A stretch of DNA of 32,000 nucleotides. Source: Candidatus Electronema halotolerans. Its GTDB lineage: Bacteria > Desulfobacterota > Desulfobulbia > Desulfobulbales > Desulfobulbaceae. Below the pieces are notes generated by a model. That model ran no database searches. It saw only the letters and a program-made list of their open reading frames with translations, and had not been told where the DNA came from. Position 1 is the first letter of the stretch; every line of letters begins with the position of its first letter. The stretch spans positions 1,140,001-1,172,000 of the forward strand of contig OW818675.1 in NCBI GenBank assembly GCA_942493095.1, given 5' to 3'. Below are positions 10,000-26,716 of the stretch, piece by piece. The position numbers and the translations under genes are program-made.

Positions 10000-10089
10000 T
10001 TAGGTGGATTCAGGGCAGTTTCGGATTGAGCAGACCCAGATGTATGTAATAATTTGGCATTTGCTCAACCAGAAACTGCTGCATGGCAA

Positions 10090-10118: not shown

Positions 10119-10128
10119 GAACTGTTTT

Positions 10129-10150: not shown

Positions 10151-10215
10151 TTAAGCATAGATTACTTGCCGCTGTTGTTGCGGTTTGAATTCAACTTAAC
10201 AGAGATGATCTTGTC

Positions 10216-10647
10216 ATGAAAATATATTCTACAGCAATAATCCTGTTTTCTTTGTTAGTCAGTAGCACTGCCGTTTTTTCTGCCCCGATTTTTTCTCCTC
10301 ATGTCTGTAGTGGATATAACCAAAAAGGTGGCTCTTGTGTCGCCTCTTGCAAAGCTGGTGAAATTTCAGTATGTCGTGATGCTTCTGATGCAAACGATCC
10401 GCAATGCTATTGCAAAGCAGGAAATAGTGATCGTTCGTTTAATGGTTTTTTGGATAGCCTGAAAATTGAAGCAATCAAAGACAATAACCATTCGCTAGCT
10501 GTTGTTGCAGATATCATTTTACAGGCAGACAGAGACCTTTTTCCTGAAGGAGAAAGGCTGGTGGCCGCTACAGCTCTATGCGATGCCCGACCACCAGAAC
10601 CTCTATACTGCTCAATAAGACTTCCCGATGTGCTGCCATTGCCATAG
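10216..10647 (+). CDS. Secreted Cys-rich protein of unknown function
   Basis: Signal peptide MKIYSTAIILFSLLVSSTAVFSA. The N-terminal module has 7 Cys in about 40 aa (HVCSGYNQKGGSCVASCKAGEISVCRDASDANDPQCYCKAGN). I recognise no family. Confidence 0.55.
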   Translation: MKIYSTAIILFSLLVSSTAVFSAPIFSPHVCSGYNQKGGSCVASCKAGEISVCRDASDANDPQCYCKAGNSDRSFNGFLDSLKIEAIKDNNHSLAVVADIILQADRDLFPEGERLVAATALCDARPPEPLYCSIRLPDVLPLP

Positions 10648-10814
10648 TTCAGCAACGTGATTGTGCTCTGCGCATAAATCATGATGTGTCATATTTCTTG
10701 ACAGTGTGCAGTGCATATTAGTTTAGAGCAGAGAGCTTTTATGATTTTTCATCTTGAAAACTCTCTGTTTTCTATACGCTGCTTCATTTTTTCTGAAACA
10801 GGTTCTTCTTTGCC

Positions 10815-11336
10815 ATGCCAACGCCTTTCTCGCAGACTGCCCAAGCCCTGCAAGCAGATCAGGGACGTTTCAGTTTGCTGAGTTTAAGTGTCGCTGTTGT
10901 GATTCTCCTGCTCTGGTGCTGGTGGCTGTTTTATGCGCCTGTCTATCTTTCTGTCAGCAGCACCCAGCTGCACGTGACCTCAGTCGAGCAGCCGACATGG
11001 AAGCTGTCTGAGGGCAGTGGACGGCCAGCAGCGTACCAACAGTATGAAGTGCAGGCGCAGTTCACTCCGGCAGATGCGGCCAACATTAAGGTCGGGCAAG
11101 CGGCAAAGCTGTTTCTGCGCAGCTCAGACACCCTGCCACGACGGCCTCTGCCAGCAATTGTGGCGCAGGTGCAGGCGGACAAGGGGCTTGTCTCTCTCAG
11201 GCTGGAGCTGCCGCAGGAAACCTCAGCCAAGACCTTGGCAGGGACAACCGTTGAGCGGGCCGAAATAGCGATTGCCAAGACATCGCCGGTGAATTTTCTG
11301 CTCCACACTTCATTCGGCATCAAGGCAGTTGACTGA
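10815..11336 (+). CDS. Miniature HlyD-family membrane fusion / secretion accessory protein (173 aa)
   Basis: The N-terminus FSQTAQALQADQGRFSLLSL plus one TM helix (VAVVILLLWCWWLFYAPV) matches the HlyD-type start. The C-terminus (GQAAKLFLRS...AIVAQVQAD...VSLRLELP...VERAEIAIAKTSPVNFLL) matches the HlyD beta-barrel end. The central coiled-coil/lipoyl region seems absent. The stop is 3 nt before the PCAT start. Confidence 0.55.
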   Translation: MPTPFSQTAQALQADQGRFSLLSLSVAVVILLLWCWWLFYAPVYLSVSSTQLHVTSVEQPTWKLSEGSGRPAAYQQYEVQAQFTPADAANIKVGQAAKLFLRSSDTLPRRPLPAIVAQVQADKGLVSLRLELPQETSAKTLAGTTVERAEIAIAKTSPVNFLLHTSFGIKAVD

Positions 11337-11339
11337 CCG

Positions 11340-14054
11340 ATGACAAAAATTGCCTCTTTTCTGGGAATGCGGCAGGATGGCCGCCGTTTTCTCATCCCGG
11401 AAGTGGTGCAAAGCTCGATGATGGACTGCGGGCCTGCGGCCTTGAAAGCCCTGCTGGCCGGATTCAACATTCAGGTCCATTACGACCGGCTCCGGGAAGC
11501 CTGCCAGACTGACGTGGATGGCACCTCCATCGACACTTTGGAGGATTTGGCAGTCCAGCTCGGTCTTGATGCCGTGCAGGTGATGCTGCCTGCGGATCAT
11601 CTCTTTCTCGCCTCAGCAGAAGCCCTGCCCGCGCTGGTGGTGGTGCGGCAGCCGAACGGCTTCACTCATTTCATTGTCTTATGGCGGCTGCATGGCCGCT
11701 GGGCGCAGATTCTTGATCCGGGCACAGGCCGTCATTGGCTCCGCATCGAACAGCTCAAGCAGCGGCTCTACCTGCACCAGCAGAACATTGCGACAGAAGA
11801 CTGGCAGGAATGGTTAAAAAGTCCGGCCTTCTGCGAACCGCTTCAGGAACGGCTGGTCCTGCTCTGCGGCGATCCGGCTTGGTCTGAAGACATTGTCGAA
11901 GAGGCCCGGGCCGCTCAGGGCTGGCAGGAGCTGGCCGCTTTGGATGCAGCGGTGCGGATGACCCAGTCCTTGGTCCGGGCCAAAGGCGTGGGCCGGGGCA
12001 GCAAGGCCGGTCTGCTGGCCCAGCAGCTCGCCTGGCAGCCGGAGAAAATTCCCCTGTTGTACTGGTCAGCCCGGAAAGTGCCTGAAGACAGCAGTTCCGT
12101 GATTATTCAAGGGGCGGTGCTCATTCATGTGGCTGGCCTGCTGGAGCCGGAAGAGGACTTGGAAGAAGAAAGCGGCTCTGATTTCACCCCTGATCAGGAG
12201 AGCGGGCCGTCATCCGCCGCCTTGCGGGCCGCTCTCAGCGAGCCGCCGCCGCCCAGCCCGGAGCAGCATATAGCAAGTGCCCTGCGCGAGGATGGTCTGC
12301 TTGTTCCCCTGCTGATGCTCGCTGGCGTGGTGCTGGCCGGGTTCAGCATCTGCATGGAAATTGTCATGCTGCGCAGTCTGATGGAGGTCTGTCAGCAGAC
12401 GCAGCTCATCAACCAGCAGACAGAGACCTTTGCCGCAGTGACCCTGTTTCTCTGCTGCCTGCTCCTGCTGGAATGGCCTTTGGGACTTGTCGCTTTAGGA
12501 CTGGGCCGCCGTTTTGAAGTCCGGCTGCGGCAGCGTTTTTTGGCAAAACTGCCCAAGCTGGAAGACCGCTATTTTCACAGCCGTCTCACTTCAGACATGA
12601 TTCAGCGGGCCTACGAGCTACAGCAGCTTCAGTTCATTCCCCTGCTGGGCATGAATTTCCTTAAAATGCTTGTTCATGCCCTCTGCATCACCGCTGGCCT
12701 GATTGCGCTCTACCCGGAAGGAGCTTTTCTGATTCTGCTGACCAGTGCGGCCAACATCGCCTTTGCCCTGCTCAGTCAGCCGCTGATGCAGGAGCAGGAC
12801 ATGCGCTTCCGCACCCATACGGCCAGCCTCAGCCGATTCTATTTGGATTCGCTGCAAGGCTTGCTGCCGATCCGCAGTCACGGAGCGGAAAAAGCCCTGC
12901 GCAGCGAGCATGAGCGGCTCTTGGTTGACTGGGCGCGGGCTGGGGGCGAATTTTTCCGCACCTTTGAATGGCTGACGCTCTTCGGTTCCCTGTTGAGCAC
13001 CGGCATGGCCATCTGGTTATTTTTCGACTACATGCACTCCGGCGGCGGCAGCAGCAACACCCTGATCCTGCTTTACTGGATGCTGATGCTGCCCAATCTT
13101 GGCCGTTCCTTGGCCGAGCTGGCCCAGCAGTATCCCTCGCTGCGCAACCGCCTCCTGCGCCTGCTTGAGCCGCTCAACGCCCCGGATGCCAGTCGGCATT
13201 GGTATCCGGCAGAGCAGGAGGAAAATCAGGAGGAGCAGCGCGCAGGCGCGGCAGTGCGGTTTGAGGATGTCAGCGTGGTGCTTTCCGGCCAGACAGTCCT
13301 GAACAATTTGCAGGCCGAGCTGCGTGCAGGAGAACACGTGGCAGTGGTCGGCGCATCTGGGGCGGGCAAATCCACTCTTGTCGGCCTGCTGCTCGGCTGG
13401 CACCGGCCTGCTCAAGGCGGCGCGGTGCGGATCGATGGCAGGCTGCTCCAAGGCGATTTCCTTCAGCAGCTCCGCCGAGAGCTGGTCTGGGTTGACCCCG
13501 AAGTGCAGCTCTGGAATCGTTCGTTCCGCGACAATCTCAGCTATGGCAATGACAGCGGCGACGAGCTGCCGCTGGATATCCTCAGTCAGGCTGACTTGAT
13601 AGACGTGCTGGCCCGCCTGCCAGAGGGCGAGGAAACCCTGCTGGGCGAAAACGGCGGTCTGCTCTCCGGCGGCGAGGGACAACGGGTCAGGCTGGGCCGG
13701 GGCATGAACCGCAGCAGTCCTCGCTTGGTGATTCTTGATGAGCCGTTTCGCGGCTTGACACGCGGCCAACGGCGGGAGCTGTTGACCAAGGCCCGCCGCT
13801 GCTGGCAGACCGCCACCTTGATTTTCATCTCTCATGATGTCAGCGACAGCTTGGGATTTGACCGGGTCTGGATGATGGCGGACGGCGAGCTGATTGAGGA
13901 TGATCACCCGGAAACGCTGGCCGGCCAGCCGGATTCCGCCTATGCCCGCCTGCTGAAACAGGAACGGGCGGTCCGCGAGCAGGTCTGGGAGAGCACTGAC
14001 TGGGTCCGGCTCCGCATTGACAACGGCAGGCTGCACGGCCATGCTGCGGATTGA
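11340..14054 (+). CDS. Peptidase-C39-domain ABC transporter (PCAT, bacteriocin/RiPP-type exporter), elongated form (904 aa)
   Basis: C39 triad context: MMDCGPAAL (Cys30, 11427-11429), GFTHFIVLW, ILDPGTG. A transmembrane domain follows. NBD motifs: Walker A GASGAGKST, signature LSGGEGQRVRLGR, Walker B LVILDEPF. An extra segment of about 170 aa containing an acidic stretch (EPEEDLEEESGSDFTPDQESG) lies between the peptidase and the TMD. Confidence 0.85.
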   Translation: MTKIASFLGMRQDGRRFLIPEVVQSSMMDCGPAALKALLAGFNIQVHYDRLREACQTDVDGTSIDTLEDLAVQLGLDAVQVMLPADHLFLASAEALPALVVVRQPNGFTHFIVLWRLHGRWAQILDPGTGRHWLRIEQLKQRLYLHQQNIATEDWQEWLKSPAFCEPLQERLVLLCGDPAWSEDIVEEARAAQGWQELAALDAAVRMTQSLVRAKGVGRGSKAGLLAQQLAWQPEKIPLLYWSARKVPEDSSSVIIQGAVLIHVAGLLEPEEDLEEESGSDFTPDQESGPSSAALRAALSEPPPPSPEQHIASALREDGLLVPLLMLAGVVLAGFSICMEIVMLRSLMEVCQQTQLINQQTETFAAVTLFLCCLLLLEWPLGLVALGLGRRFEVRLRQRFLAKLPKLEDRYFHSRLTSDMIQRAYELQQLQFIPLLGMNFLKMLVHALCITAGLIALYPEGAFLILLTSAANIAFALLSQPLMQEQDMRFRTHTASLSRFYLDSLQGLLPIRSHGAEKALRSEHERLLVDWARAGGEFFRTFEWLTLFGSLLSTGMAIWLFFDYMHSGGGSSNTLILLYWMLMLPNLGRSLAELAQQYPSLRNRLLRLLEPLNAPDASRHWYPAEQEENQEEQRAGAAVRFEDVSVVLSGQTVLNNLQAELRAGEHVAVVGASGAGKSTLVGLLLGWHRPAQGGAVRIDGRLLQGDFLQQLRRELVWVDPEVQLWNRSFRDNLSYGNDSGDELPLDILSQADLIDVLARLPEGEETLLGENGGLLSGGEGQRVRLGRGMNRSSPRLVILDEPFRGLTRGQRRELLTKARRCWQTATLIFISHDVSDSLGFDRVWMMADGELIEDDHPETLAGQPDSAYARLLKQERAVREQVWESTDWVRLRIDNGRLHGHAAD

Positions 14055-14077: not shown

Positions 14078-16174
14078 ATGATTTTTGAGCTTGTCCTGTT
14101 TGGCGGAGCCGCTGCGGTGTTCTTGGACAATCGGCGCAGCAGGCCAAGTGCGCCGTCCTGCCAGCGACTGACAAAAGGGTGTCAGTCCTGCCCAAAGCCG
14201 TGCCGCCGAAAAAAAGGCAGGCAGATGCGTGATCTGGTCACAGACCGGCACCGGCAGCAGCTCAAGCTGGAGCTTGAGCCGACCCAGGCGGCAGCCTTGG
14301 CAAAAGTGCGGCAGGAGAATCAGCAGACCATGCTGCTCTCGCTGACAGCGTTCAGCTTTTCCCTGCTTGGCAAGCTCATCCTGCCCTTGGTTTCGGTCAG
14401 CATTGCCATCATGCTCTATCTGCTGACCAAGAATATCGCGGACATTAAAAAGGATTTCCAGCGAGGGCAATATGTCAGCACCCATCTGCTCGGCCTGGTC
14501 ATGATCCTTGGCCTGATTGTCACGGACAACGTGGTCTTTGCCGCCATTTCAGTTCTGTCAAGCAGCTTCTTCTCCATGCTTGTCAGGCTGATCAACGAGA
14601 ATTCACAGCAGAAGCTGATCAGCGTCTTCAGCGAACACCCAGCCCAAGTTTGGCTCCTGCAAGATGGAGTTGAGATGCAAACAGATTTTTCCAGCCTTCA
14701 GCGTGGTGATCTTATCGTTGTCAATGCCGGGGAGATGATTCCGGCAGACGGCAGCATCACGGACGGAGAAGGGCTGGTGGATCAGCATCTGCTCACCGGA
14801 GAAAGCCTGCCTGCGGAAAAATCCAGCGGAGATGCGGTTGCCGCCGCAACTCTGCTTCTCAGCGGGCGGCTGGTGATCGCCGTGGCAGGCAGCGGCGAGG
14901 CGGCGATGGCTGCCGAGGTCAACGAAGCACTTGACCGGACGCAGCAGTACAAAGACACCTTGGTACTCCGAGGCCGCCGCATCTATGAGCAGTTTGCTCC
15001 GGTCACACTTGGCCTCAGCGCAGTGACGCTGCCAGTGCTGGGCGCGGATGCAGCCTTGGCCGTGCTGTGGTCTGACATGGGCAGCATTGCTGCGGATGCA
15101 GGCGCAGGCGCGCTGTTCAACTCTCTCCAGCTGTTGGCGCAGGAAGGCATCTTGGTCAAAGACGGCAGAGTCTTTGAGACCTTGCAGGATGTTGACACGG
15201 TTGTTTTTGACAAAACCGGCATCCTGACCTTGCCGCAGCCGACTGTGGGCAAAATTCACCTCTTTGCCGCTGCGGACGAAAAAACAGTGCTTTGCCATGC
15301 CGCTGCCGCAGAATACCGGCAGCAGCATCCGATTGCGCAGGCCATTCTTGCCCACGCCGCTGCCGAGCAGCTTGCTGTGCCGCTGCCGGAAAAAACAATT
15401 TCTGTGGCGGGCGGTGGAGTCAAAGTCTCTGCTGACGGCCAGACAATTGTTGTCGGCAGTGCCCGCTTTTTAGAACAAGAAGGGGTTGTTCTCCCGGAAG
15501 AGGCGTTGCTGGTGCAGCAGGCTGCCAGCAGCGGCCACACGCTCATTTATGTCAGTGCTGACAGCAGGCTGGTCGGCATTTTGGAACTGGAGCCAGCCCT
15601 GCGGCCAGAGGCGGCCAGCATCATCCGGCAATTGCAGAAACGGAATATCAGATGCTGCATCCTCTCTGGCGATCAGGAAAGTGCTGTCAGGCATGCGGCG
15701 GAACAGCTTGGCATCGAAGAATACTGCACTGCCGCGCTGCCTGTTGATAAATATAATTACATAAACGAGCTGCAAAAACAAGGAAGATCAGTCTGCTTTG
15801 TCGGCGATGGTCTCAACGATGTCATGGCCTTGAAAAATGCCCATATTTCGGTGTCTATGAAAGGCGCGGCAGATGCGGCGGTGAATACGGCCCAGATTAT
15901 CTTCACAGATGGAAACTTGGAAAAGCTGCTCAGATTTTTTGACAGATCAAATGAGTTTCAGGAACTGATGAAACGCAATTATTTCATCAGTGTTGCGCCG
16001 AGCGTATTCACCATTGCCGGGGTTTATCTGCTTCATTTCAGAATCACTGCTTCCTTTGCCATCTTCAGCGCAAGCTGCGTAGCTGCTTTTTGCAACACAG
16101 CATGGCCGCTGCTGGAAAAATGCGGAGATAAAGTGAAAATACTTCCTCATGCTGAGGACAAAAATTTAAAATAA
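14078..16174 (+). CDS. P-type ATPase paralogue 1, P1B-like but lacking CPx and HMA domains, with a degenerate DKTGILT motif
   Basis: LTGESLPAEK (TGES), DKTGILT (15209-15229), QQHPIAQAI (P1B-type HP motif), SGD, GDGLNDVMALK. There is no Cys-Pro-x motif and no proline in the helix preceding GILVKDGRV. A Cys cluster, CQRLTKGCQSCPKPC, lies at 14159-14203. The start is supported by the N-terminal helix MIFELVLFGGAAA, which is conserved in the two paralogues. Confidence 0.8.
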   Translation: MIFELVLFGGAAAVFLDNRRSRPSAPSCQRLTKGCQSCPKPCRRKKGRQMRDLVTDRHRQQLKLELEPTQAAALAKVRQENQQTMLLSLTAFSFSLLGKLILPLVSVSIAIMLYLLTKNIADIKKDFQRGQYVSTHLLGLVMILGLIVTDNVVFAAISVLSSSFFSMLVRLINENSQQKLISVFSEHPAQVWLLQDGVEMQTDFSSLQRGDLIVVNAGEMIPADGSITDGEGLVDQHLLTGESLPAEKSSGDAVAAATLLLSGRLVIAVAGSGEAAMAAEVNEALDRTQQYKDTLVLRGRRIYEQFAPVTLGLSAVTLPVLGADAALAVLWSDMGSIAADAGAGALFNSLQLLAQEGILVKDGRVFETLQDVDTVVFDKTGILTLPQPTVGKIHLFAAADEKTVLCHAAAAEYRQQHPIAQAILAHAAAEQLAVPLPEKTISVAGGGVKVSADGQTIVVGSARFLEQEGVVLPEEALLVQQAASSGHTLIYVSADSRLVGILELEPALRPEAASIIRQLQKRNIRCCILSGDQESAVRHAAEQLGIEEYCTAALPVDKYNYINELQKQGRSVCFVGDGLNDVMALKNAHISVSMKGAADAAVNTAQIIFTDGNLEKLLRFFDRSNEFQELMKRNYFISVAPSVFTIAGVYLLHFRITASFAIFSASCVAAFCNTAWPLLEKCGDKVKILPHAEDKNLK

Positions 16175-16184
16175 TGGTTGCAAG

Positions 16185-18290
16185 ATGATCCTTGAACTTA
16201 TCCTTATCGGTTCCGCCACTGCGCATTGGCGGAAGCAAAGATATAAAGAAACTGATCTGGCAGAGATGCCAAAAAAGAAGACAGTATCTATTCAAGAGAA
16301 ATTCAATCCGAAAAAATTGGTTGAGCATATTAAATATGTTTTTACAAACGATGAATGTCAGCCTGTTGTTGCAAAACAAGCGGATACAGACAAAGCAATT
16401 GTCTCTGAAAATCCGTTTTTACAGAGTAATACATTGGTTGCTGCTGGAAATTTTGTCATGGCCCTGCTGGGAGGAATATCTCCACTGTTTATCCTGATGG
16501 CCGTTGTAGGAATTCTCTATGTCTCAAGGAGCATGCTTCTTCTTGCATTGCAAGACCTGAAGAATAGACGATATATGAGCATATTTGTCGTTGAATCCGT
16601 GCTTTTTATAGGCATGATTCTTACAGGTCATCTGATATTGGCAACCTTTTCTTCCCTTTTTGGTGATTCTATTGTTAAACTTATCAATAAAACTGAAGAA
16701 AGCGCCAACAAACAACTCGTCAATGTTTTTGGCAAGCATCCTGAAAAGGTCTGGCTGAAGAAAGATGGATTGGAAATTCAAGTTGATTTTGACAGCATCC
16801 AAGCTGGTGACACGGTTGTTGTCAGTGCCGGAGAGATGATCCCTGTTGACGGTCAAGTCATGGAGGGCTTGGCTACTGTTGATCAGCATATTTTGACCGG
16901 TGAAAGCCAGCCGGTGGAAAAAATGAATGGCGACAAAGTTTTTGCCGCAACGCTGGTCATTTCAGGCCGAATTCATATCTTGGTGGAAACAGCCGGCCAG
17001 AATACTGTGGCGGCGAAAATTGGCGATATCCTCAACAACACCAAGCAGTATAAAGACAAGCTCATGGCTCGCGGCCAAGAGATCACTGAAAGCCTGTTGC
17101 CGCTCCAGTTGAGCGTTTTTGCCTTCACTCTGCTACTGCTGGGCAAAACGTCGGCTCTTACTGTGCTCTGGACTGGACTGGGAACGACCATGGTGATGCT
17201 TGGACCGATAACAGTTTTAAATTATTTACGAGTATTTTCCAGAAACGGGATTTTAATCAAGGATGGACGGGTGCTGGAATCCCTGCATCAAGTTGACACG
17301 ATAGTTTTTGATAAAACAGGAACTTTGACAATGGAACAGCCGGAAGTGGGGGCAATTCACTGCCTGTCCGGCTGGGAGGAAGAGGAAGTTCTGCTCTGCG
17401 CTGCCGCTGCGGAGCGGCGGCAGAGCCATCCTGTGGCCAAGGCCATTTTGTCAAAGGCAGCCGCCTTTGACATAGGTCTGCCTGATTTGGACAGCGCGCA
17501 CTATGAAATGGGATACGGCATCAAAGTTCTTGTCAAAGGGAAGCGTGTCCAAGTCGGCAGCGCTCGTTTCATGCAGCGCGAAAACATTGCTCTGCCGGAA
17601 CAGGTGCTGGATATTCAAGAACAGGCTGAGGATGAAGGCTATTCTCTGATTTATGTGGGAATTGATGGTGAGCTGGCCGGAATTTTGGAAATGCGTCCCT
17701 GCATCCGTCCGGAGGCGGCGACTGTCGTGCGGCATCTGAAAGAGCGCGGCATGAAACTCTATATCATCTCAGGAGATCATGAGCATCCGACAAAAAAAAT
17801 GGCCGAACAGCTCGGCATGGATCATTATTTTGCCGAAGTTCTGCCGGAGCGCAAGGCAGAACTGGTGAAAACCCTTGCTGAAAAAGGACGTTTTGTCTGT
17901 TTCATTGGCGACGGCATCAATGATTCTATTGCTCTGAAATCAGCCCAAGTGTCTGTATCCATTCAAGGCGCGTCAACAGCAGCGACCAACACCGCTCAAA
18001 TTATTTTCATGGATGGAACGCTCAATCATCTACAGCAGCTCTTCCTCTTCTCTGATGAATTTGAAAAGACCATGAAGGTGAATTTCTACACCTCAGTGGT
18101 ACCAGGTGTGCTTTGCTTTGGCGGAGTGTATTTTCTCCATATCGGCCTGACAGCAGGAATGGGCTTGTTCTATGCAGGAACTGCGGCTGGTCTTTTCAAC
18201 ACTTTTGTGCCTGTTTTAAAATATAAAGACAAGGAGCTGGCTGGAAAATGCGGCAGAACTCTCTTGGAAGATCAAACAGCAACCAACTGA
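16185..18290 (+). CDS. P-type ATPase paralogue 2, P1B-like, lacking CPx and HMA domains
   Basis: LTGESQPVEK, DKTGTLT, QSHPVAKAI, ISGDHEHP, GDGINDSIALK. The N-terminal helix is MILELILIGSATA. It starts 10 nt after paralogue 1 and has visibly lower GC. Confidence 0.85.
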   Translation: MILELILIGSATAHWRKQRYKETDLAEMPKKKTVSIQEKFNPKKLVEHIKYVFTNDECQPVVAKQADTDKAIVSENPFLQSNTLVAAGNFVMALLGGISPLFILMAVVGILYVSRSMLLLALQDLKNRRYMSIFVVESVLFIGMILTGHLILATFSSLFGDSIVKLINKTEESANKQLVNVFGKHPEKVWLKKDGLEIQVDFDSIQAGDTVVVSAGEMIPVDGQVMEGLATVDQHILTGESQPVEKMNGDKVFAATLVISGRIHILVETAGQNTVAAKIGDILNNTKQYKDKLMARGQEITESLLPLQLSVFAFTLLLLGKTSALTVLWTGLGTTMVMLGPITVLNYLRVFSRNGILIKDGRVLESLHQVDTIVFDKTGTLTMEQPEVGAIHCLSGWEEEEVLLCAAAAERRQSHPVAKAILSKAAAFDIGLPDLDSAHYEMGYGIKVLVKGKRVQVGSARFMQRENIALPEQVLDIQEQAEDEGYSLIYVGIDGELAGILEMRPCIRPEAATVVRHLKERGMKLYIISGDHEHPTKKMAEQLGMDHYFAEVLPERKAELVKTLAEKGRFVCFIGDGINDSIALKSAQVSVSIQGASTAATNTAQIIFMDGTLNHLQQLFLFSDEFEKTMKVNFYTSVVPGVLCFGGVYFLHIGLTAGMGLFYAGTAAGLFNTFVPVLKYKDKELAGKCGRTLLEDQTATN

Positions 18291-18308
18291 AAACAAGGGG
18301 AGAAGAAG

Positions 18309-19268
18309 ATGAAAAGGCATGTTTCGTATGGAGTATTGGCTGTGCTGTGTGCAATGTCCTTCAATGCGGCGGCATTTGCAGAAGAGATGAAGCAGGAGGC
18401 GCAAACAGCGTCGGCTGATGAGGGCTGGCTTTCCAACGGGGCGGCACTTGGTGTTCCTTGGTGGACAAAGAATCCGAAAAAGCTGGCCTTTATTCCAGAG
18501 CCGCTTCTGTATCATGTTGAACTCAGTTATTCCTACTCCAAAACATCCGGCAATACAGATGTTGAGGATCAGTCTGGCTCAGGAACGCTTTACCTGCGGA
18601 AAAATATAGTCAGCAGCGAGACCTATTTCGATGTCAGCAAAAACGAAACCACGGACAATTTTTCCAGTGCTGACGCAGCCCCTTTTGTGGTGGAAAGTCA
18701 GACCTTCGGACAGGAACTCATCTGGTCCGTAACCGATGTCATCTCTTTGCTGGGCGGTGGTCTCTGGCGGGAGAACGATTCGCAGCGGTATATTGACAGC
18801 AGTCAGACGTACTATGCTGGCGCCCGCACTCGAGTGCTGGACACACCGCAATTCAACCTGAGCCTGACAGCCGCTTACGGCTATATGGACTCATCCTATC
18901 AAAACGACAGAATCACCGCTGTCTATAGTGATTTTCAGCCGGTTGACGACTACGACTCCGGGGTGCTCAATTTCAATGTTGATTTCCGCTGGATGATTAC
19001 GGACAAGATCACCTTTTCAGAGAGTGCGACCTATCTGCATGACATAGACAACACTGACTACTACTGGCTGAATTCAACCAGCAAGCTGGACTTTAAAATT
19101 ACTGACAATCTTTCTTTCTTCACGGAATACAACTGCATTGCCTACCAAAGTCCGCTGATTGAACAAGCGCAGGATTTCCTTGATGCCAAACGGGCGCAAG
19201 GAATCGCGGCTGGCGACATGGAGACAGTGACATCCAAAATCTCCGCAGGAATAACTGTCAGCTTCTGA
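18309..19268 (+). CDS. Outer-membrane beta-barrel protein, DUF481 (YdiY-like) candidate
   Basis: Signal peptide MKRHVSYGVLAVLCAMSFNAAAFA. It shows an alternating-hydrophobic beta-strand pattern. The SYSYSKTSGNTDVEDQSG block resembles the DUF481 SGNT motif. The C-terminus ISAGITVSF ends in Phe, as is typical of OM barrels. Confidence 0.55.
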   Translation: MKRHVSYGVLAVLCAMSFNAAAFAEEMKQEAQTASADEGWLSNGAALGVPWWTKNPKKLAFIPEPLLYHVELSYSYSKTSGNTDVEDQSGSGTLYLRKNIVSSETYFDVSKNETTDNFSSADAAPFVVESQTFGQELIWSVTDVISLLGGGLWRENDSQRYIDSSQTYYAGARTRVLDTPQFNLSLTAAYGYMDSSYQNDRITAVYSDFQPVDDYDSGVLNFNVDFRWMITDKITFSESATYLHDIDNTDYYWLNSTSKLDFKITDNLSFFTEYNCIAYQSPLIEQAQDFLDAKRAQGIAAGDMETVTSKISAGITVSF

Positions 19269-19283
19269 TCATTGTCATCTTCA

Positions 19284-19308
19284 GCGGCATTCTTTGCAAG
19301 AATGCCGC
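19284..19308 (+). terminator. Hairpin terminator candidate after the OM-barrel gene
   Basis: gcggcattctt (19284-19294) pairs perfectly with aagaatgccgc (19298-19308) across a 3-nt loop. A second small hairpin (aagcgg...ccgctt) and T-rich tracts (tattttttcttttttt) follow. Confidence 0.5.
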
Positions 19309-19366
19309 AAGCGGCTCTCCTGATCCGCTTTAAAATCGGCGGATATTTTTTCTTTTTTTGCCAATC

Positions 19367-20212
19367 ATGGACAATTCATTGTATGCGTTTGAAAATGTCG
19401 CGCAAAGGTATCAGCAGCTGCGGGCTGCTTACGGGGAACGTGACAGTGACATCTACATCAGCAGTTACACGCGCTCCGGCACAACATGGACACAGATGAT
19501 CCTCTATCAGCTGACAACTGATGGCAATATGGATTTCAAGCATATTTTTGATGTGTCGCCGTGGCTGTTTTATAATGCGCTTAGAGGAACAGAGCCTGTG
19601 CCGAGACCAGAGCCGCGCATTCTGAAAACGCATGATGACTACAGCTCATATTCAAAAGATACAAAAGGCCGTTTCATCTATGTGGTCAGGCATGGAATGG
19701 ATGTGATGGCTTCTTTTTATCACCATAGGGTGAACGTGAAAGGATTCACAGGAACATTTACTGACCACTTCAATGAGTTCATTTATGGCATGGAGTATAA
19801 TGGCCAGCCTTACAACTGGTTTGAGCATGTCAGAGACTGGCTGGAGAATAACAACAATCTCTTTGTCCTGCCGGTGAAATACGAGTCGCTGAAACATGAT
19901 TTTGATGATGCGATTCAGCGGATAATCCAGTTCTGCCGCATTCCGGCAACGGATGAAATACTTAGGCGCACCAAAGAACGGACCACCTTCGCCTTTCTCA
20001 AGCAGCATGAATTGCAGCTTGGCCCTGTCCCAAGCCAGTTCCGCAGGACAGGAGATGCGCCTTATAAAGTGAAAAACCAGCATCAATTCATCCGCAAAGG
20101 GCTGGTCGGCGAAGGTCGTTCCATGCTGACTCCGCGCCAGCAGGAAATATATTCGGCGAAATTTCAAGATACGCTTGGACATCTTGATTTTATTGCCGAA
20201 TATTGCGAATAG
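19367..20212 (+). CDS. PAPS-dependent sulfotransferase, cytosolic (Sulfotransfer_1) type
   Basis: 5'-PSB loop YTRSGTTW; catalytic-His context RILKTHDDY; 3'-PB segment YVVRHGMDVMASFYHH; C-terminal FIRKGLVGEGRSMLT (RKGxxGxW-like). ATG 19367 is preferred over TTG 19358. Confidence 0.8.
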   Translation: MDNSLYAFENVAQRYQQLRAAYGERDSDIYISSYTRSGTTWTQMILYQLTTDGNMDFKHIFDVSPWLFYNALRGTEPVPRPEPRILKTHDDYSSYSKDTKGRFIYVVRHGMDVMASFYHHRVNVKGFTGTFTDHFNEFIYGMEYNGQPYNWFEHVRDWLENNNNLFVLPVKYESLKHDFDDAIQRIIQFCRIPATDEILRRTKERTTFAFLKQHELQLGPVPSQFRRTGDAPYKVKNQHQFIRKGLVGEGRSMLTPRQQEIYSAKFQDTLGHLDFIAEYCE

Positions 20213-20320
20213 CTGTCTCTGTCCATCCAGCTCGGCATCACGGTCAGATGTCGGCATCTTCGCAACATTTTTTATTTGCGCATTGCCTCCTGAAGACAGG
20301 AGGCAGGAGATTTTTTTGCA

Positions 20321-22387
20321 ATGCTGATTGAAACCTTGCTTCTTTGCGGCGCGCTGTACGCATTCAGAAAAAAAGATGCGCCAGCATCATCTGACAAAGC
20401 AAAACAAACTGACAGTGCCGCTGCCACAGCGGCTGAACTGGAACTGGAAGAAACAGCGCCGCTGCCGCATGAGGATGACAAGTCATTTGTCGAGCAGGAC
20501 AGGAAGGTGGTTGCGCCAGAGCAGGAGATCAACCGAAAATTGATCATCTCCGGCATGTCAACAGCCCTTTGCGCCGGAGGAGCACTTTTTTCCTCTCCTC
20601 CTCTTGCTGTTCTCAGCCTTCCCGGCCTGTTCTACAGCAGCGCGGACATCTTCAAAAGCGCGTATCAGACTTTCCGCAAAGAGAGAAAACTGAATGTTGA
20701 CAGCACAATTGCGGTTGTCACTGTTGTCAGTGTCGCCAATGGCTTTCTCTTTGTCTGCAATCTGAACACCCTGCTTGCCATGACCAGCCGGAAGCTGCTG
20801 CTCAAGGTGAAAAATGACTCGCAGGACAGTGTCATTGATGTCTTCCGGCAGCAGCCGCAGACGGCATGGGTGCTGACTGACGGGATTGAGATTGAACGGC
20901 CTGTCGAGACACTGAAAGCGGAAGATGTGGTGGTGGTCAAGGCTGGCGAAACCATTCCAGTGGATGGATTGATCATTTTCGGCACAGCCTCGATTGATCA
21001 GCATATTCTGACCGGAGAATCGCAGCCTGCGGAAAAAGGCCCGAATGAGAAGGTCTTCGCCTTGACCCATGTCCTCTCTGGAACTATCCACATTTTAGTG
21101 GAACATGCCGGGCAGAAAACCACTGCCGCGCAGATCTGCCGCATTTTGAACCGGACCACCAATCTGAAAACTGACATGCAGTTATGGGCTGAAGAAGCAG
21201 GCAATAAAGCTGTTCCCGCCGCCATGCTGGTCAGCGGCGTGTGCCTGCCAGTCTTGGGCAGCGGCAGCGCATTGGCGGTGCTCAACTCGCACCCCAAGTA
21301 CAAGACCACAATAACAAGCTGCATTGGCCTGCTCAATTATCTCAAAATTGCCTCCAAAAAAGGCATCTTGATTAAAGACGGACGTGTTTTTGAACGGTTG
21401 AACCGAGTTGACACCATAGTTTTTGACAAGACAGGCACCTTGACAGAAAACAAGATGCGGGTTGATGCAATACATGTCTATGATGGATACACGGAAAATG
21501 GTGTTTTAACCTTGGCCGCCCTTGCCGAACAACGGCAGATGCACCCGATTGCCAAAGCTGTTCTTCAAGAAGCTGAGGCACGGAACTTGAATTTCTATGA
21601 AGCGGATGAGCGCGCCTATAAAATAGGCTACGGCCTTGTTGTCAAAAGAAAAAACAAGACCATTCGTGTCGGCAGTGTCCGCTTTATTGAATCGGAAGAA
21701 CTGGCAATTCCCGCGCAAGTTCATGCGGATCATGAACGATGCCGTGACTATGGCCATTCGCTCATTCTGGTGGCAGTCAATGACAGAGTTGTCGGCGGGA
21801 TAGAACTCCAAGCAGTGGTGCGGCAGGAGGTTGGCGAGGTGATCAAGGGTCTGCGGCAGCGCGGCATCAGCTCCATCTATATTATTTCTGGAGACAATGC
21901 CAGCTCCACTAAGCAGCTCTCGGCAGTTTTGGAAACCAACCAATGCTTTGCTGAAGTGCTGCCGGAAGATAAAGCTGACCTGATTGAACAGTTTCAGCAG
22001 GAAGGCCGGACGGTCTGTTTCATTGGCGACGGCATCAATGATTCCATTGCCTTGAAAAAGGCTGATGTCTCTATTTCGCTGCGCGGCGCGTCAACTGTGG
22101 CCACAGACACCGCGCAGATCATTCTGATGGATGAGGGCCTCAATCATCTCTGCGCTCTTTTTGATCTGGCAAAAGAATACGATGCAAATATGCGGATGAC
22201 ATTCAAAACAGTGCTCATTCCCCATCTGCTTGGTCTTGGCGGCGCATTGTTCCTCCATTTCAATCTCTTGCATTCTGTGATCTTGAATCAAATCGGCTTG
22301 GCTCTTGGAGCAGGCAATGCCATGCTGCCGCGCTTCAAGCATCAGGACAGAGGCGGTCACAAGGTGCCGCTCATGCAGGATGAGTAA
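20321..22387 (+). CDS. P-type ATPase paralogue 3, P1B-like, lacking CPx and HMA domains
   Basis: LTGESQPAEK, DKTGTLT, QMHPIAKAV, ISGDNASS, GDGINDSIALK. The N-terminal helix MLIETLLLCGALYA is followed by an acidic linker (ELELEETAPLPHEDDKSFVEQD). Confidence 0.85.
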   Translation: MLIETLLLCGALYAFRKKDAPASSDKAKQTDSAAATAAELELEETAPLPHEDDKSFVEQDRKVVAPEQEINRKLIISGMSTALCAGGALFSSPPLAVLSLPGLFYSSADIFKSAYQTFRKERKLNVDSTIAVVTVVSVANGFLFVCNLNTLLAMTSRKLLLKVKNDSQDSVIDVFRQQPQTAWVLTDGIEIERPVETLKAEDVVVVKAGETIPVDGLIIFGTASIDQHILTGESQPAEKGPNEKVFALTHVLSGTIHILVEHAGQKTTAAQICRILNRTTNLKTDMQLWAEEAGNKAVPAAMLVSGVCLPVLGSGSALAVLNSHPKYKTTITSCIGLLNYLKIASKKGILIKDGRVFERLNRVDTIVFDKTGTLTENKMRVDAIHVYDGYTENGVLTLAALAEQRQMHPIAKAVLQEAEARNLNFYEADERAYKIGYGLVVKRKNKTIRVGSVRFIESEELAIPAQVHADHERCRDYGHSLILVAVNDRVVGGIELQAVVRQEVGEVIKGLRQRGISSIYIISGDNASSTKQLSAVLETNQCFAEVLPEDKADLIEQFQQEGRTVCFIGDGINDSIALKKADVSISLRGASTVATDTAQIILMDEGLNHLCALFDLAKEYDANMRMTFKTVLIPHLLGLGGALFLHFNLLHSVILNQIGLALGAGNAMLPRFKHQDRGGHKVPLMQDE

Positions 22388-23480: not shown

Positions 23481-23852
23481 TTATTCCCTGCTGAAAAAAA
23501 GATACACCGCCAATGTAGCAAGAATGCTGGCAAAAATCTTTTTGAAATGGGCGGTGGAGATATGCTGGACCAAGGATGCGTCGAGCTGCGCGCCTGCAAG
23601 ACCGCCAAGACCCAGCACGGCACCGGTCTTGTAATCTAACTGGGCAAACTTATGATGAGCGAACAGGGCTGAGGCGGAAATGATCAAAATGGCGACAAAA
23701 GAGGTGCCAACAGCTTCCTGCGCCGCATAGCCCATGAAGAGCAGGAGCGGCACCATGAGAAAGCCGCCGCCCAGTCCCAGAAACGAACCGCAGATGCCCA
23801 CACCAGTGCCGGTGAGCAGCAGCAGCAAAGCTGTTGTTGTGTTCATTTCCAT
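23481..23852 (-). CDS. TauE/SafE (DUF81) family membrane protein, half-size (123 aa, about 4 TM)
   Basis: LLLLLTGTGVGICGSFLGLGGGFLMVPLLLFMG...AVGTSFVAILI is the characteristic TauE/SafE N-terminal repeat. It is only about half the usual length. Confidence 0.65.
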   Translation of the reverse strand: MEMNTTTALLLLLTGTGVGICGSFLGLGGGFLMVPLLLFMGYAAQEAVGTSFVAILIISASALFAHHKFAQLDYKTGAVLGLGGLAGAQLDASLVQHISTAHFKKIFASILATLAVYLFFSRE

Positions 23853-25876: not shown

Positions 25877-26716
25877 TTACTTCATTTCAGACAGCAGCTT
25901 GGGGTCTGTGACTAATTTCCTCACGCCGTGCGCGTGATTTTCCTTGAACACGTTGCCTTCACACCATTTGCCAAGGCTGTTGATGTCAACTTTGGCGCAC
26001 TCAGGCCGGACGCTCCATGTGACCTGGAAAGGCGAGCACTGCTGGTTGTTGTATTTCGGGCCAGTGGTTGAGCCGAGGAATTCAACCGGATTGCCAGTGC
26101 CGCTTGGCAGGGTCTTGGCCTGATGCAGGCCATTGACCATGTTGCCGTCATAGACAAAGTCATTGAAGTTCAGAGCGGACGAGTCATTGACCACCAGAAA
26201 AACCTGTGACTCCACGCGCAGATTGGGGTTGGAGCAGCTTTCTGACAGGCAGGAGCCAAGGCCTTCGCCCGGCTTGACATCACAGGAACTGTACACCCAA
26301 TGCACCTCAATGGTGTCGCCCGGTTTCAGCCCATGACAGACCTCGCCTTTGGGCGGCTCCAGCTCCTTCTTGGTCAGCAGCGAGGTGGTGGTGCATTGGT
26401 AGCCGCCGCCGTGCCCTTCATGGCCTTCACCGGCATAGATGGCGAAATCTTTAGCTTTGTGCTCCGCATTGACATGAAAGTGAATGTTGCAGAGATTCAT
26501 GTCATTGTAACCGGGGGCGACAGAGAATACCCGCTTGTTTTCTCCAGCCTTGCTGTCAATGTCTCTTGGGGTCTGCGGTCCAAAGCCTTCGCATACGCCT
26601 TCTTCAGCAACTGGCGGTGCTTCCTTGTGAACAGGCTGCTCCTTTGCTGTGACCCAAGCGGAGAGGCCGAGGGAAAGGAAAATCGTCAGGATGCTGATGG
26701 ATTTTGTTGAATTCAT
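25877..26716 (-). CDS. Secreted carbonic-anhydrase-like protein (alpha/delta-type motif arrangement)
   Basis: Start ATG 26716 with AAGGAGGAA upstream and signal peptide MNSTKSISILTIFLSLGLSAWVTA. Alpha-CA-like landmarks occur in order: GPQTPRDID (QSPIDI-like), CNIHFHVNAEHK (HFH...EH), TIEVHWVY (ELHLVHW-like), VFLVVND, FLGSTTGP...CSPFQVTWSV (GSLTTPPC..V.W-like). The track ORF extends to 26911, but that N-terminus lacks an RBS and a signal peptide. Confidence 0.5.
   Translation of the reverse strand: MNSTKSISILTIFLSLGLSAWVTAKEQPVHKEAPPVAEEGVCEGFGPQTPRDIDSKAGENKRVFSVAPGYNDMNLCNIHFHVNAEHKAKDFAIYAGEGHEGHGGGYQCTTTSLLTKKELEPPKGEVCHGLKPGDTIEVHWVYSSCDVKPGEGLGSCLSESCSNPNLRVESQVFLVVNDSSALNFNDFVYDGNMVNGLHQAKTLPSGTGNPVEFLGSTTGPKYNNQQCSPFQVTWSVRPECAKVDINSLGKWCEGNVFKENHAHGVRKLVTDPKLLSEMK

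Follow-up and report, generated by a model that had tools for sequence, protein, structure and literature searches.

The closest described systems are the P1B-1 and P1B-2 heavy-metal pumps, with AfCopA (3j08/7r0g), LpCopA (3rfu/4bbj) and ZntA (4umv/4umw) giving the best sequence and fold matches to the three P-type ATPases described here (sequence E-values of about 1e-60 to 1e-55). Two further groups, P1B-6 (SCA) and P1B-7 (CSC), carry a proline-free tripeptide in the fourth transmembrane helix (TM4), and their substrates are poorly known (PMC13460109, PMC7558416); P1B-6 is also marked by N-x18-H-N-x-(S/T) between TM5 and TM6. KdpB (P1A), the second-best structural class, is a short P1-type pump without metal-binding domains that operates with KdpA, KdpC and KdpF. 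P-type scaffolds that move organic cargo are familiar from P5B (the polyamine pump ATP13A2) and P4 (lipid flippases); PMC10654040 also bears on this. The miuraenamide cluster contains two "heavy metal P-type ATPase" ORFs of comparable length, which leaves no room for an HMA domain; their function is unknown, and they are embedded between core PKS/NRPS genes (PMC10051162).

The window, a stretch of 32,000 nucleotides from the cable bacterium Candidatus Electronema halotolerans, encodes three ATPases (A1–A3) that share with P1B-1 and P1B-2 pumps the catalytic motifs (the P1B-type HP motif among them), two extra helices ahead of M1, only M5–M6 after the P domain and, in models, a TM4 unwound at the same place. 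They differ from these pumps in having LGT, MGS or PKY in place of CPC, an invariant PG where CopA has the TM5 residues YN, no HMA or His-rich domain, an extra N-terminal hydrophobic helix of 15 residues, and a genomic context that is biosynthetic rather than related to metal resistance. P1B-6 and P1B-7 are likewise P1B pumps with a proline-free tripeptide, but retain a cysteine in it, whereas this clade has none. In contrast to KdpB, A1–A3 have no such partner genes, and their TIGR01497 scores (124–142 bits) fall far under the cutoff of 528. The P5B and P4 pumps belong to other subfamilies with other helix numbers and TM4 motifs and show no specific sequence relationship to A1–A3 (TIGR01657 about 95 bits, cutoff 618); they serve only as a precedent by analogy for how such a pump may work.

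Three intact pump genes

The three genes are encoded as follows.

14078–16174, plus strand: ATPase-1 (A1), 698 aa; divergent and lineage-specific, carrying DKTGILT, TM4 LWSDMGSIAADAGAG and a Cys patch (residues 28–42)
16185–18290, plus strand: ATPase-2 (A2), 701 aa; typical of the LWSGLG...GP.SVLNYLQ subfamily
20321–22387, plus strand: ATPase-3 (A3), 688 aa; LNSHPKYKTTI subfamily, basic TM4

Regular expressions on the translations located TGES, DKTG(I/T)LT, HP(I/V)A and GDGxND at residues 240, 378, 417 and 576 of A1 (DKTGILT, HPIA, GDGLND), 238, 376, 415 and 575 of A2 (DKTGTLT, HPVA, GDGIND) and 231, 369, 408 and 569 of A3 (DKTGTLT, HPIA, GDGIND). The ATP-driven E1/E2 machinery is thus retained, comprising the TGES phosphatase loop, the DKTG phospho-aspartate, the HP nucleotide motif and the GDGxND hinge. 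A1–A3 are intact P-type ATPases and, in the absence of experimental evidence for any member, apparently catalytically competent. All three exceeded the 346-bit cutoff of the NCBIfam heavy-metal P-type ATPase model TIGR01525 (363, 389 and 373 bits for A1, A2 and A3, respectively) and scored below cutoff with the Cu (IB1) and Cd (IB2) subfamily models.

Pfam detected only the E1-E2_ATPase and HAD hydrolase domains in A1–A3, with no HMA domain; no His-rich domain was present, and the patterns [CST]P[CHS] and GMxCxxC had no match anywhere in the three translations. In place of the metal-binding domains, the N terminus has a short hydrophobic helix, M-(I/L)-x-E-(L/T)-..., and a basic disordered linker. 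This helix is found in all three proteins, and its M1, E4 and G9 are conserved in 92%, 68% and 71% of 384 family sequences. The linker of A1 additionally contains a small Cys patch (C28, C35, C38 and C42, including CQSC) that is common only to close Electronema orthologues. A1 orthologues at 85–99% identity retain DKTGILT and AGAG, and the next relatives (49–51% identity) have DKTGTLT and LGG(I/T)MAPAGS instead.

A2 matches a Candidatus Electronema halotolerans protein in NCBI at 100% identity. A1 and A2 share 42% identity, and A3 is 33–39% identical to either; GC content is 0.549, 0.463 and 0.513, and GC3 is 0.625, 0.473 and 0.573, for A1, A2 and A3, respectively. We consider the three to be old paralogues because each belongs to a separate orthologous subfamily with its own conserved TM4 motif and A3 is nearer to a Caldilinea protein (69% identity) than to A1 or A2. 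A sequence-only reading of this region had described three P1B-like ATPases of these lengths that carry all four catalytic motifs, lack CPx and HMA (GMxCxxC) domains, share an N-terminal hydrophobic helix and are old paralogues rather than recent duplicates; each of these claims held, and the TM4 strings that it quoted translate exactly.

The cargo site across a cysteine-free clade

The TM4 segments below are exact translations.

15059–15109, plus strand: A1 TM4 segment AVLWSDMGSIAADAGAG, standing where CPx would be
17160–17207, plus strand: A2 TM4 segment TVLWTGLGTTMVMLGP, with LGT opposite the CopA CPC
21275–21322, plus strand: A3 TM4 segment AVLNSHPKYKTTITSC

A phmmer alignment places the CPC of AfCopA opposite LGT of A2, which corresponds in the paralogue alignment to MGS in A1 and PKY in A3. 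The HPK of A3, with a proline one residue N-terminal of the CPC proline position, is not a CPx, SPC or APC motif; a canonical motif mis-aligned by eye, which would have refuted the earlier reading, was not found on alignment. The CopA TM5 ligands YN align with the family-invariant P640-G641. Gly, Pro, Ser, Asn and aromatic residues specific to the family thus take the place of the TM4 and TM5 metal ligands. TM4, TM5 and the predicted TM6, the last of which could not be aligned to solved P1B structures, show no conserved Cys, His, Met, Asp or Glu; the conserved transmembrane residues of the family are Ser, Asn and Tyr, and the TM4 core varies across the family.

The P1B helix layout is retained in the clade. 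The best fold matches, at E-values between 1e-39 and 1e-37, were LpCopA, ZntA and AfCopA (4bbj, 4umw and 7r0g in the Foldseek search with A2). In the AlphaFold (AF2) models, TM4 is broken at residues 330–335 (GLGTTM) of A2 (pLDDT 75) and 323–327 (SHPKY) of A3 (pLDDT 82, pTM 0.75). The unwinding of TM4 at the canonical cargo site is therefore predicted by these two models to be retained, exactly on the family motif.

Three protein searches returned 318 homologues; in 317 of them the TM4 core contains no [CST]P[CHSG], and the remaining one was left uninspected. The pattern was also absent from every readable TM4 among 110 family ORFs, including a few fragments without TM4, in the approximately 90 loci fetched. 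A further 145 representatives comprised 117 without the pattern, five with xPG and 23 fragments. It is very likely, given the single uninspected homologue, that the hallmark of P1B-1 to P1B-7, a cysteine-containing TM4 tripeptide, has been lost across the clade. A1–A3 are members of this distinct, conserved, cysteine-free clade, which descends from P1B heavy-metal pumps. The clade comprises about 500 clusters at 50% identity, often occurs in tandem copies, and is hosted by large sulfur bacteria, cable bacteria, Chloroflexota, Entotheonella and SAR324; the catalytic motifs are invariant across hundreds of homologues. The earlier suggestion that these pumps are functionally uncharacterised also held, since no dedicated NCBIfam model exists for the clade and neither a paper devoted to it nor an experiment on any member was found in the literature searched. 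That reading had missed the large conserved clade, its biosynthetic cluster setting and the minus-strand NRPS at 2–4657.

Gene neighbourhoods

The other features of the window are listed below.

2–4657, minus strand: NRPS fragment, at least 1552 aa; A domain with embedded methyltransferase, PCP and C; runs off the window start
6294–7883, plus strand: radical SAM/SPASM enzyme; very low GC (0.35; GC3 0.26)
7873–9234, plus strand: periplasmic binding protein (Pfam Peripla_BP_6/ANF_receptor)
10815–11336, plus strand: 173-aa membrane protein, conserved partner of the C39-ABC exporter gene; no Pfam family
11340–14054, plus strand: C39 peptidase-domain ABC exporter, 904 aa (Pfam Peptidase_C39, ABC_membrane, ABC_tran)
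18309–19268, plus strand: DUF481 protein with signal peptide, between ATPase-2 and the sulfotransferase (PF04338, E=1.3e-18)
19358–20212, plus strand: PAPS-type sulfotransferase (Sulfotransfer_1, E=3e-37)
20283–20306, plus strand: terminator-like hairpin between the sulfotransferase and ATPase-3; 10-bp stem, six G-C pairs, T-run; consensus match only

The pump block runs from the 173-aa protein through the C39-ABC exporter, ATPase-1, ATPase-2, the DUF481 protein and the sulfotransferase to ATPase-3, and adjoins the NRPS and radical SAM genes. The NRPS ORF was identified by our own ORF caller and matched Condensation (1.8e-109), AMP-binding (1.2e-94), PP-binding and Methyltransf_12; plus-strand ORFs at 794–3673 had no Pfam match. 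The exporter gene ends 24 bp before ATPase-1, its product weakly matches NHLM_micro_ABC1, and its homologues adjoin family ATPases in Electrothrix (L002) and Entotheonella (L076). The 173-aa protein clusters with one encoded in the Entotheonella locus (L076:9014–9583), and similar genes, for 190-aa and 185-aa proteins, lie upstream of the exporter gene in L002 and in L091, a contig from a related Electronema. Eight genes of this region recur in L091 with a different downstream flank, including the DUF481 gene in the matching position; its product is probably an outer membrane protein. Among the cluster genes, GC3 spans 0.26 (radical SAM) to 0.73 (ABC exporter), and we infer that the block was horizontally acquired. 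The sulfotransferase is 69% identical to one directly upstream of a 69%-identical ATPase in Caldilinea sp. CFX5 (L087), and the two genes form a conserved module common to Electronema and Caldilinea. In Electrothrix AU1_5, an A3-type pump lies beside an arylsulfotransferase, a sulfatase and a type III PKS.

NRPS/AMP-binding (adenylation) genes lie within 10 kb of the pump in 29 of 83 loci, spanning Gammaproteobacteria, Desulfobacterota, Chloroflexota, Entotheonella and SAR324, and are the immediate same-strand neighbour of 16/93 ATPase genes versus 20/637 of the remaining genes in these loci (odds ratio 6.4, p=1e-6). The pumps also neighbour sulfotransferases, EgtD-like methyltransferases, amino-acid and arginine decarboxylases, amidinotransferases, a carbamoyltransferase and sulfatases. 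The TM4 class NSG(V/F)GST(L/M)(Y/F)FSGP has an EgtD-like methyltransferase, Sulfotransfer_1 or their fusion at most four genes away in 5/5 loci, and an acidic TM4 core is present in all six ATPases adjoining an amidinotransferase or arginine decarboxylase versus 19/88 others (p=2e-4). TM4 motif class thus probably co-varies with the neighbouring enzymes, the acidic-core association being post hoc and uncorrected for phylogeny. NRPS genes are absent within 10 kb in about two thirds of loci, and in some (e.g., L003, L013, L086) none of the neighbours is obviously biosynthetic. These statistics rest on our crude ORF calling and single-linkage clustering, which wrongly placed one sulfotransferase in the NRPS cluster; biosynthetic clusters abound in many of the host genomes, and the counts lack a genome-wide background.

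Candidate functions

Our best explanation is that the pumps use ATP to export cluster products or to confer immunity to them, an inference without experimental support that we hold as likely to be wrong as right. It rests on a TM4 pocket that differs by subfamily and tracks the biosynthetic neighbours, and on NRPS genes that are often directly adjacent on the same strand. The loss of metal-binding residues across the clade, together with adjacent natural-product biosynthesis genes, leads us to infer that the cargo is probably organic rather than a heavy metal. To our knowledge, no P1-type ATPase carries organic cargo, which counts against this explanation.

Alternatively, the pumps may still be metal-related, handling metal on non-canonical ligands or as a metallophore complex from adjacent NRPS or opine-like genes. 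P1B ancestry, the HP motif and the TIGR01525 score favour this, as do Chloroflexota loci in which ATPase genes are interleaved with those for SBP_bac_5-type binding proteins and ABC permeases (L052, L060, L046, L081), a TonB-dependent receptor near the pump in L031 and L036, EgtD-like and FGE-sulfatase (EgtB-like) genes suggestive of histidine- or thiol-derived chelators, and a heavy-metal P-type ATPase listed in a cyanobacterial metallophore cluster (PMC12210259). However, the variable TM4 core, the missing HMA and His-rich domains and the lack of conserved Cys, His, Met, Asp or Glu in TM4, TM5 and the unalignable TM6 make it unlikely, and a metal-chelate cargo would still be organic and therefore overlap with our best explanation. 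We judge a pump for H+, Na+ or K+ that counters ionophoric or channel-forming products, or balances export charge, to be very unlikely. Hosts such as Entotheonella make channel-forming peptides, genes for Na+/H+ exchangers are found repeatedly close to the pump (L010, L062, L068), and the conserved Ser, Asn and Tyr can line ion sites; yet no acidic residue is conserved in TM4, TM5 or predicted TM6, pocket diversity that tracks the neighbours is hard to square with a single common ion, and tandem arrays of two or three divergent paralogues better suit several cargos.

Similarly improbable is that the pumps have no cargo of their own and act as sensors, or use ATP to energise or regulate a partner protein in the way that KdpB serves KdpA. 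After the P1B pumps, KdpB gives the best structural match, the loss of all classical ligands is compatible with such a role, and pumps lie beside a C39-ABC export system in three taxa. Against it, the neighbours in 83 loci include no partner gene that is conserved throughout, and the predicted TM4 unwinding with a conserved, subfamily-specific pocket favours a binding site. That these are decaying, non-functional copies of heavy-metal pumps is suggested only by the unusual DKTGILT of A1 and its lack of the GP downstream in TM4. Conservation effectively refutes decay and all but excludes it: none of the three ORFs is truncated, hundreds of homologues keep the catalytic motifs unchanged, the peculiarities of A1 persist in its 85–99%-identical orthologues, and gene order is conserved in a related genome.

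Under the export or immunity reading, ATPase-3 would be coupled to the cytoplasmic sulfotransferase, with the basic HPKYK pocket of the pump as a possible binding site for a sulfated, anionic cargo. A further point against this reading is that when regions containing both miuraenamide ORFs, whose clade membership is unverified, were deleted, production persisted in the heterologous host Myxococcus xanthus (PMC10051162). What is new here is the location of cysteine-free pumps in biosynthetic clusters, where each pump would export the small molecule made by its own cluster or shield the producer from it.

Catalytic core and TM4 cargo site

The three P1B-like P-type ATPases of the window are as follows:

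14078-16174, + strand: ATPase-1 (A1), 698 aa
16185-18290, + strand: ATPase-2 (A2), 701 aa
20321-22387, + strand: ATPase-3 (A3), 688 aa

The sequence-only reading had proposed these three ORFs, which are present exactly as it described. Its claims of TGES, DKTG(T/I)LT, HP and GDGxND motifs were upheld by regular-expression scans of the translations. These located TGES at residues 240, 238 and 231 of A1, A2 and A3, respectively, the phospho-aspartate motif at 378 (DKTGILT), 376 and 369 (both DKTGTLT), the HP dipeptide of the nucleotide-binding domain at 417 (HPIA), 415 (HPVA) and 408 (HPIA), and the GDG(L/I)ND hinge at 576, 575 and 569. The H and P of the HP motif are invariant across the family, by which we mean A1, A2, A3 and their homologues. 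The sole Pfam matches in the three proteins are the E1-E2_ATPase and HAD hydrolase domains. The criteria of the P-type ATPase superfamily (the DKTG aspartate, TGES, GDGxND and the two domains) are met, with A1 deviating in carrying DKTGILT rather than DKTGTLT, and motif conservation shows the E1/E2 catalytic apparatus to be intact. A1 and A2 share 42% identity, A3 is 33–39% identical to either, and the GC contents are 0.549, 0.463 and 0.513 for A1, A2 and A3. An NCBI protein of the cable bacterium Candidatus Electronema halotolerans matches A2 at 100% identity.

A cytoplasmic HMA or His-rich metal-binding domain is common in P1B ATPases, though not obligatory. The HMA domain is absent from all three proteins by Pfam, and the GMxCxxC motif by regular expression. 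The TM4 strings quoted in the earlier reading were recovered unchanged (encoded by 15059-15109, 17160-17207 and 21275-21322), and its claim that the proteins lack both CPx and HMA was supported by regular expressions, Pfam and the CopA alignment. In the phmmer alignment, the A2 segment “vlwtgLGTtmvmlgP” lies opposite “vlvvaCPCafglatP” of AfCopA. Based on this and on the alignment of the paralogues, the position of the CPC tripeptide is occupied by MGS in A1, LGT in A2 and PKY in A3; the proline of A3 (HPK) sits one residue before that of CPC. No [CST]P[CHS] motif occurs anywhere in the three whole proteins, and the alignment and scans together rule out a canonical motif overlooked by eye.

The TM5 ligands of CopA, YN, lie opposite P640-G641, which is invariant in the family. 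Conserved TM residues of the family are Gly, Pro, Ser, Asn and Tyr, and no conserved Cys, His, Met, Asp or Glu was seen among them. Against solved structures, TM5-TM6 could be aligned over the GDGIND region alone; no statement on TM6 ligands follows from it.

AlphaFold models were obtained for A2 (pLDDT 75) and A3 (pLDDT 82, pTM 0.75). Foldseek ranked LpCopA, ZntA and AfCopA at the top (E ~1e-39 to 1e-37), followed by KdpB. Both models show the P1B layout, in agreement with hydropathy, with MA and MB preceding M1-M2 and only M5-M6 following the P domain. TM4 is modelled as helix-break-helix, the break falling at 330-335 (GLGTTM) in A2 and 323-327 (SHPKY) in A3. Because this break coincides exactly with the family motif, the canonical cargo site is predicted to be structurally retained.

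One additional N-terminal helix extends the P1B type I topology. It is hydrophobic, spans 15 residues (M1 in 92%, E4 in 68% and G9 in 71% of sequences, with an aromatic at 14-15) and leads into a disordered linker of ~50 residues that is basic in character. That the three proteins share such a helix had been noted from sequence alone; this held, and the helix is a family-wide feature. Within its cytoplasmic N-terminal linker, A1 also carries a cysteine patch (C28, C35, C38 and C42; C-x6-C-x2-C-x3-C, including CQSC; window 14159-14203). The full patch or three of its four cysteines are found in close Electronema orthologues only, and the rest of the family lacks it.

Classification and extent of the family

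The general P1B criteria are met: the HP motif, the type I topology and the generic heavy-metal model TIGR01525 (NCBIfam), which is passed marginally (363, 389 and 373 bits for A1, A2 and A3, cutoff 346). The seven P1B classes all have a cysteine in the TM4 tripeptide, which reads CPC, CPH, SPC, PCP, SCA or CSC (PMC13460109). A check against the P1B-1 to P1B-7 signatures, suggested by the sequence-only reading, was run and matched no subfamily; the clade fits none of these TM4 classes. P1B-1 (CopA) pumps have YN in TM5 and MxxSS in TM6, whereas the clade has PG in place of YN, and the corresponding model TIGR01511 is not met (253–282 bits, cutoff 397). P1B-2 pumps (ZntA/CadA) combine CPC with a TM5 Lys and a TM6 Asp, whereas A1, A2 and A3 lack CPC; neither P1B-2 model is met (TIGR01512, 260–290 bits, cutoff 313.5; NF033775, ~200–216 bits, cutoff 1240). 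The KdpB (P1A) model TIGR01497 also fails (124–142 bits, cutoff 528), and the window contains no kdpA, kdpC or kdpF partner gene. The three proteins score below the cutoffs of the Cu and Cd models, and far below those of the specific NCBIfam equivalogs (CopA, ZntA, KdpB, MgtA and others), which are ruled out. The clade descends from P1B pumps and works like them, yet it does not have the TM4 and TM5 ligands that define each P1B subclass described so far.

CPx is absent from all 120 best A2 homologues (50–67% identity), whose TM4 consensus reads A-L-(A/T)-V-L-W-S-x-L-G-x-x-M-x-x-x-G-P-x-S-V-L-x-Y-L-Q-I-L-S-R. The A3 subfamily has a different, strongly conserved TM4, LNSHPKYKTTI(A/T)(T/S)YIG(V/I)LNFL. 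Three Electronema orthologues (85–99% identity) share the peculiarities of A1, namely DKTGILT and an AGAG that replaces GP; the next relatives of A1 (49–51% identity) have LGG(I/T)MAPAGS with DKTGTLT. A1, A2 and A3 each belong to their own subfamily.

The TM4 core is free of [CST]P[CHSG] in 317 of 318 retrieved homologues. When one genome per species was scanned, at least 566 loci were confirmed and the best 80 of them retained; no CPx was found in the readable TM4 of 110 family ORFs from these and earlier loci, a few being fragments without TM4. Searching 1.84 billion representative proteins with a 60-column TM3-TM4 profile matched 507 clusters at E<=1e-3, 171 of them at E<=1e-10. Of 145 new sequences, 117 had no CPx, 5 had an xPG variant and 23 were fragments. 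Hosts include Thiomargarita, Parabeggiatoa, Thioploca, Marithrix, Thiothrix, Thioflexithrix and Methylococcaceae, together with Electrothrix/Electronema, Entotheonella, many Chloroflexota, SAR324, Saprospiraceae and Holophagales. Genomes often carry several copies, and tandem arrays are frequent as well (three copies each at loci L052, L022 and L080; also L040, L078 and L002). Some representatives reach 830–1040 aa through extra N- or C-terminal sequence (P0325, P0338, P0346, P0391, P0417, P0438, P0452 and P0459).

Public databases label family members “heavy metal translocating” or “Cu2+-exporting” ATPases, which is likely wrong for this clade. The literature searched (cable-bacteria P-type ATPases, P1B ATPases in biosynthetic clusters, FUPA27-32) contained no paper on it, and a Methylococcus genome paper describes canonical CopA-type pumps only. 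Two unassigned ORFs of similar size in the miuraenamide cluster, deletion of whose regions left heterologous production intact (PMC10051162), might be its only trace in the literature; their sequences were not compared. The functionally uncharacterised P-type ATPase families of TCDB are 3.A.3.23-32, defined by Chan et al. in 2010. The clade is probably an undescribed P1B-derived variant, with the reservation that no comparison with those families was made.

Gene neighbourhoods in the window and across the family

The remaining genes around the pumps in the window are listed here:

2-4657, - strand: NRPS fragment (A domain with embedded methyltransferase, PCP, C), running past the window start
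4877-5440: DUF697
6294-7883: radical SAM/SPASM enzyme
7873-9234: periplasmic binding protein
9394-9999: predicted secreted protein with signal peptide, no family match
10216-10647: predicted secreted protein with signal peptide, no family match
10815-11336: membrane protein, 173 aa
11340-14054: C39-peptidase ABC exporter
18309-19268: DUF481 protein
19358-20212: Sulfotransfer_1 enzyme

The NRPS ORF was missing from the ORF listing because the gene extends beyond the window start; plus-strand ORFs without Pfam match at 794-3673 are probably its shadows. A1, A2, the DUF481 gene, the Sulfotransfer_1 gene and A3 follow the ABC exporter in this order, with gaps of 11–24 bp from the ABC gene through DUF481 and terminator-like hairpins at 19323-19344 and 20283-20306. 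GC3 differs strongly from gene to gene, at 0.26 in the radical SAM gene, 0.34 in the binding-protein gene and 0.73 in the ABC exporter gene, which suggests that 6294-14054 is a mosaic of separately acquired genes. One of the two secreted proteins is Met- and Gln-rich (201 aa) and the other Cys-rich (143 aa); either might be a substrate or accessory of the export genes. No GG-leader precursor peptide for the C39-ABC exporter was evident among small ORFs in 9200-10850, and the window gave no Rfam match at gathering score, hence no riboswitch or RNA clue to a ligand, and no tRNA genes. Further downstream, 25877-26911 (- strand) strongly matches delta-class carbonic anhydrase (PF10563, E=2.4e-76), here in a cable bacterium; this class is best known from diatoms. 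A 123-aa ORF at 23481-23852 (- strand) covers only positions 1-111 of 237 in the TauE/SafE sulfite-exporter profile and may be truncated or frameshifted.

The same eight-gene block, from a 141-aa ORF to A3, recurs on a related Electronema contig (L091) with the ABC-to-A3 order of the window; there ClpS/ClpA lie downstream of it, as opposed to a DUF362 gene in the window. The Electrothrix aestuarii locus combines radical SAM, NRPS, FGE-sulfatase, two ATPases, a sulfotransferase, a 190-aa protein and a C39-ABC exporter. From these arrangements, the block looks like a mobile, mosaic biosynthetic island. A Pfam-less membrane protein of 173–190 aa always lies 5′ of the ~900-aa C39-peptidase ABC exporter beside family ATPases, in Electronema, Electrothrix and Entotheonella (window 10815-14054; L002 16491-19843; L076 2805-9583; L091 741-4037). 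At a Caldilinea sp. CFX5 locus, Sulfotransfer_1 is directly upstream of an A3-type ATPase, and both proteins are 69% identical to their window counterparts; this equal identity suggests a laterally shared module of sulfotransferase and A3-type ATPase. The A3-type gene of Electrothrix AU1_5 is flanked by arylsulfotransferase, sulfatase, type III PKS and LysE genes, and two other A3-type loci have no sulfotransferase.

For the wider survey, ORFs were called in 87 sources and grouped by BLASTP. Apart from the ATPases, no neighbour family is commoner than NRPS/AMP-binding proteins, which occur within 10 kb at 29 of 83 non-duplicate loci from five phylum-level groups. An immediate same-strand NRPS/AMP neighbour was found for 16 of 93 ATPase genes, compared with 20 of 637 other genes at the same loci (odds ratio 6.4, p=1e-6). 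By Pfam, sulfotransferases neighbour nine loci, the window included, and EgtD-like histidine methyltransferases recur, two of them fused to sulfotransferases. Other recurrent Pfam neighbours are FGE-sulfatase (EgtB-like), aromatic amino-acid and arginine decarboxylases, amidinotransferases, one carbamoyltransferase, sulfatases, FMO, biopterin hydroxylase and SDRs. Recurring sets comprise FAD-oxidoreductase with AMP-ligase and carrier protein and, in Chloroflexota, SBP_bac_5 with ABC permeases. Neighbour clustering revealed no universally conserved partner gene.

The TM4 motif class probably tracks the neighbour set. All five loci of the NSG(V/F)GST(L/M)(Y/F)FSGP class lie <=4 genes from an EgtD-like methyltransferase, Sulfotransfer_1 or a fusion of the two, and the WYYPGxRMM class adjoins SBP_bac_5 genes. 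The TM4 core is acidic in all six ATPases whose neighbour is an amidinotransferase or arginine decarboxylase, compared with 19 of the other 88 (Fisher p=2e-4); this test was post hoc and not corrected for phylogeny.

In four Chloroflexota loci (L052, L060, L046 and L081), family ATPases alternate with SBP_bac_5 genes, followed by ABC permeases (ATPase-SBP5-ATPase-SBP5-ATPase-permease in L052), which hints at a possible coupled uptake and export system. Two Thiothrix loci encode Sulfotransfer_1/EgtD-like methyltransferase fusions of 641–648 aa (L062 5834-7759; L068 4807-6753) near sulfatase, amino-acid decarboxylase, biopterin hydroxylase, FMO, Na+/H+ exchanger and family ATPase genes; this gene set looks like a route to an aromatic amine or betaine that is sulfated and N-methylated.

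Proposed function and rival explanations

The models predict a P1B-like fold with TM4 unwound where the cargo site lies. The pumps lack metal ligands in the helices that could be aligned, TM6 not being among them; their pocket is subfamily-specific and their genes are linked with biosynthetic genes. We infer, with the evidence poised evenly for and against, that each pump moves the small-molecule product of its own cluster or protects the cell from it. ATP would drive this removal or protection, and in each cluster the chemistry of the product would have shaped the TM4 pocket: an acidic pocket may accept guanidino or amine cations, and a basic one (HPKYK) sulfated anions. A bolder reading, which we hold with rather less conviction, is that the clade is the first P1-type ATPase lineage to pump organic secondary metabolites, with TM4 retuned per cluster; peptides and sulfated, guanidino or quaternary-ammonium compounds are conceivable cargoes.

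A non-canonical pump for metals or metal chelates would accord with the SBP_bac_5, TonB-receptor and EgtD/EgtB-like neighbours, but the absence of ligands counts against it and we consider it unlikely. Bacterial P-type ATPases are known as inorganic-ion pumps; that the clade moves an inorganic ion for self-protection or charge balance appears very unlikely. We give as little credence to a KdpB-like energiser or regulator of a partner, against which stands the failure of neighbour clustering to find a conserved partner gene. Decay of heavy-metal pumps is all but excluded; family-wide conservation rules out pseudogenes.

Reviews hold the TM4 site to be a universal cargo saddle and the P1B family to be defined by its cysteine motif. 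To our knowledge, no organic cargo is known outside the eukaryotic P4 and P5 P-type ATPases, and if this clade were shown to transport one, that would notably widen P-type ATPase biology. The clade would correct a systematic annotation error affecting hundreds of genes named “Cu2+-exporting” or “heavy metal translocating” ATPase. If our preferred reading of product export or protection is true, a widespread P1B-derived clade with a kept engine and a rebuilt cargo site, travelling with NRPS, sulfotransferase and amine or guanidine biosynthesis genes, extends the substrate range of P1 pumps. Natural-product research would gain a new marker of export or resistance. On the bolder reading, the clade would be a transporter class of its own, new to science and serving natural-product export or self-resistance, and genome mining could use it to flag unusual clusters among uncultured filamentous bacteria.
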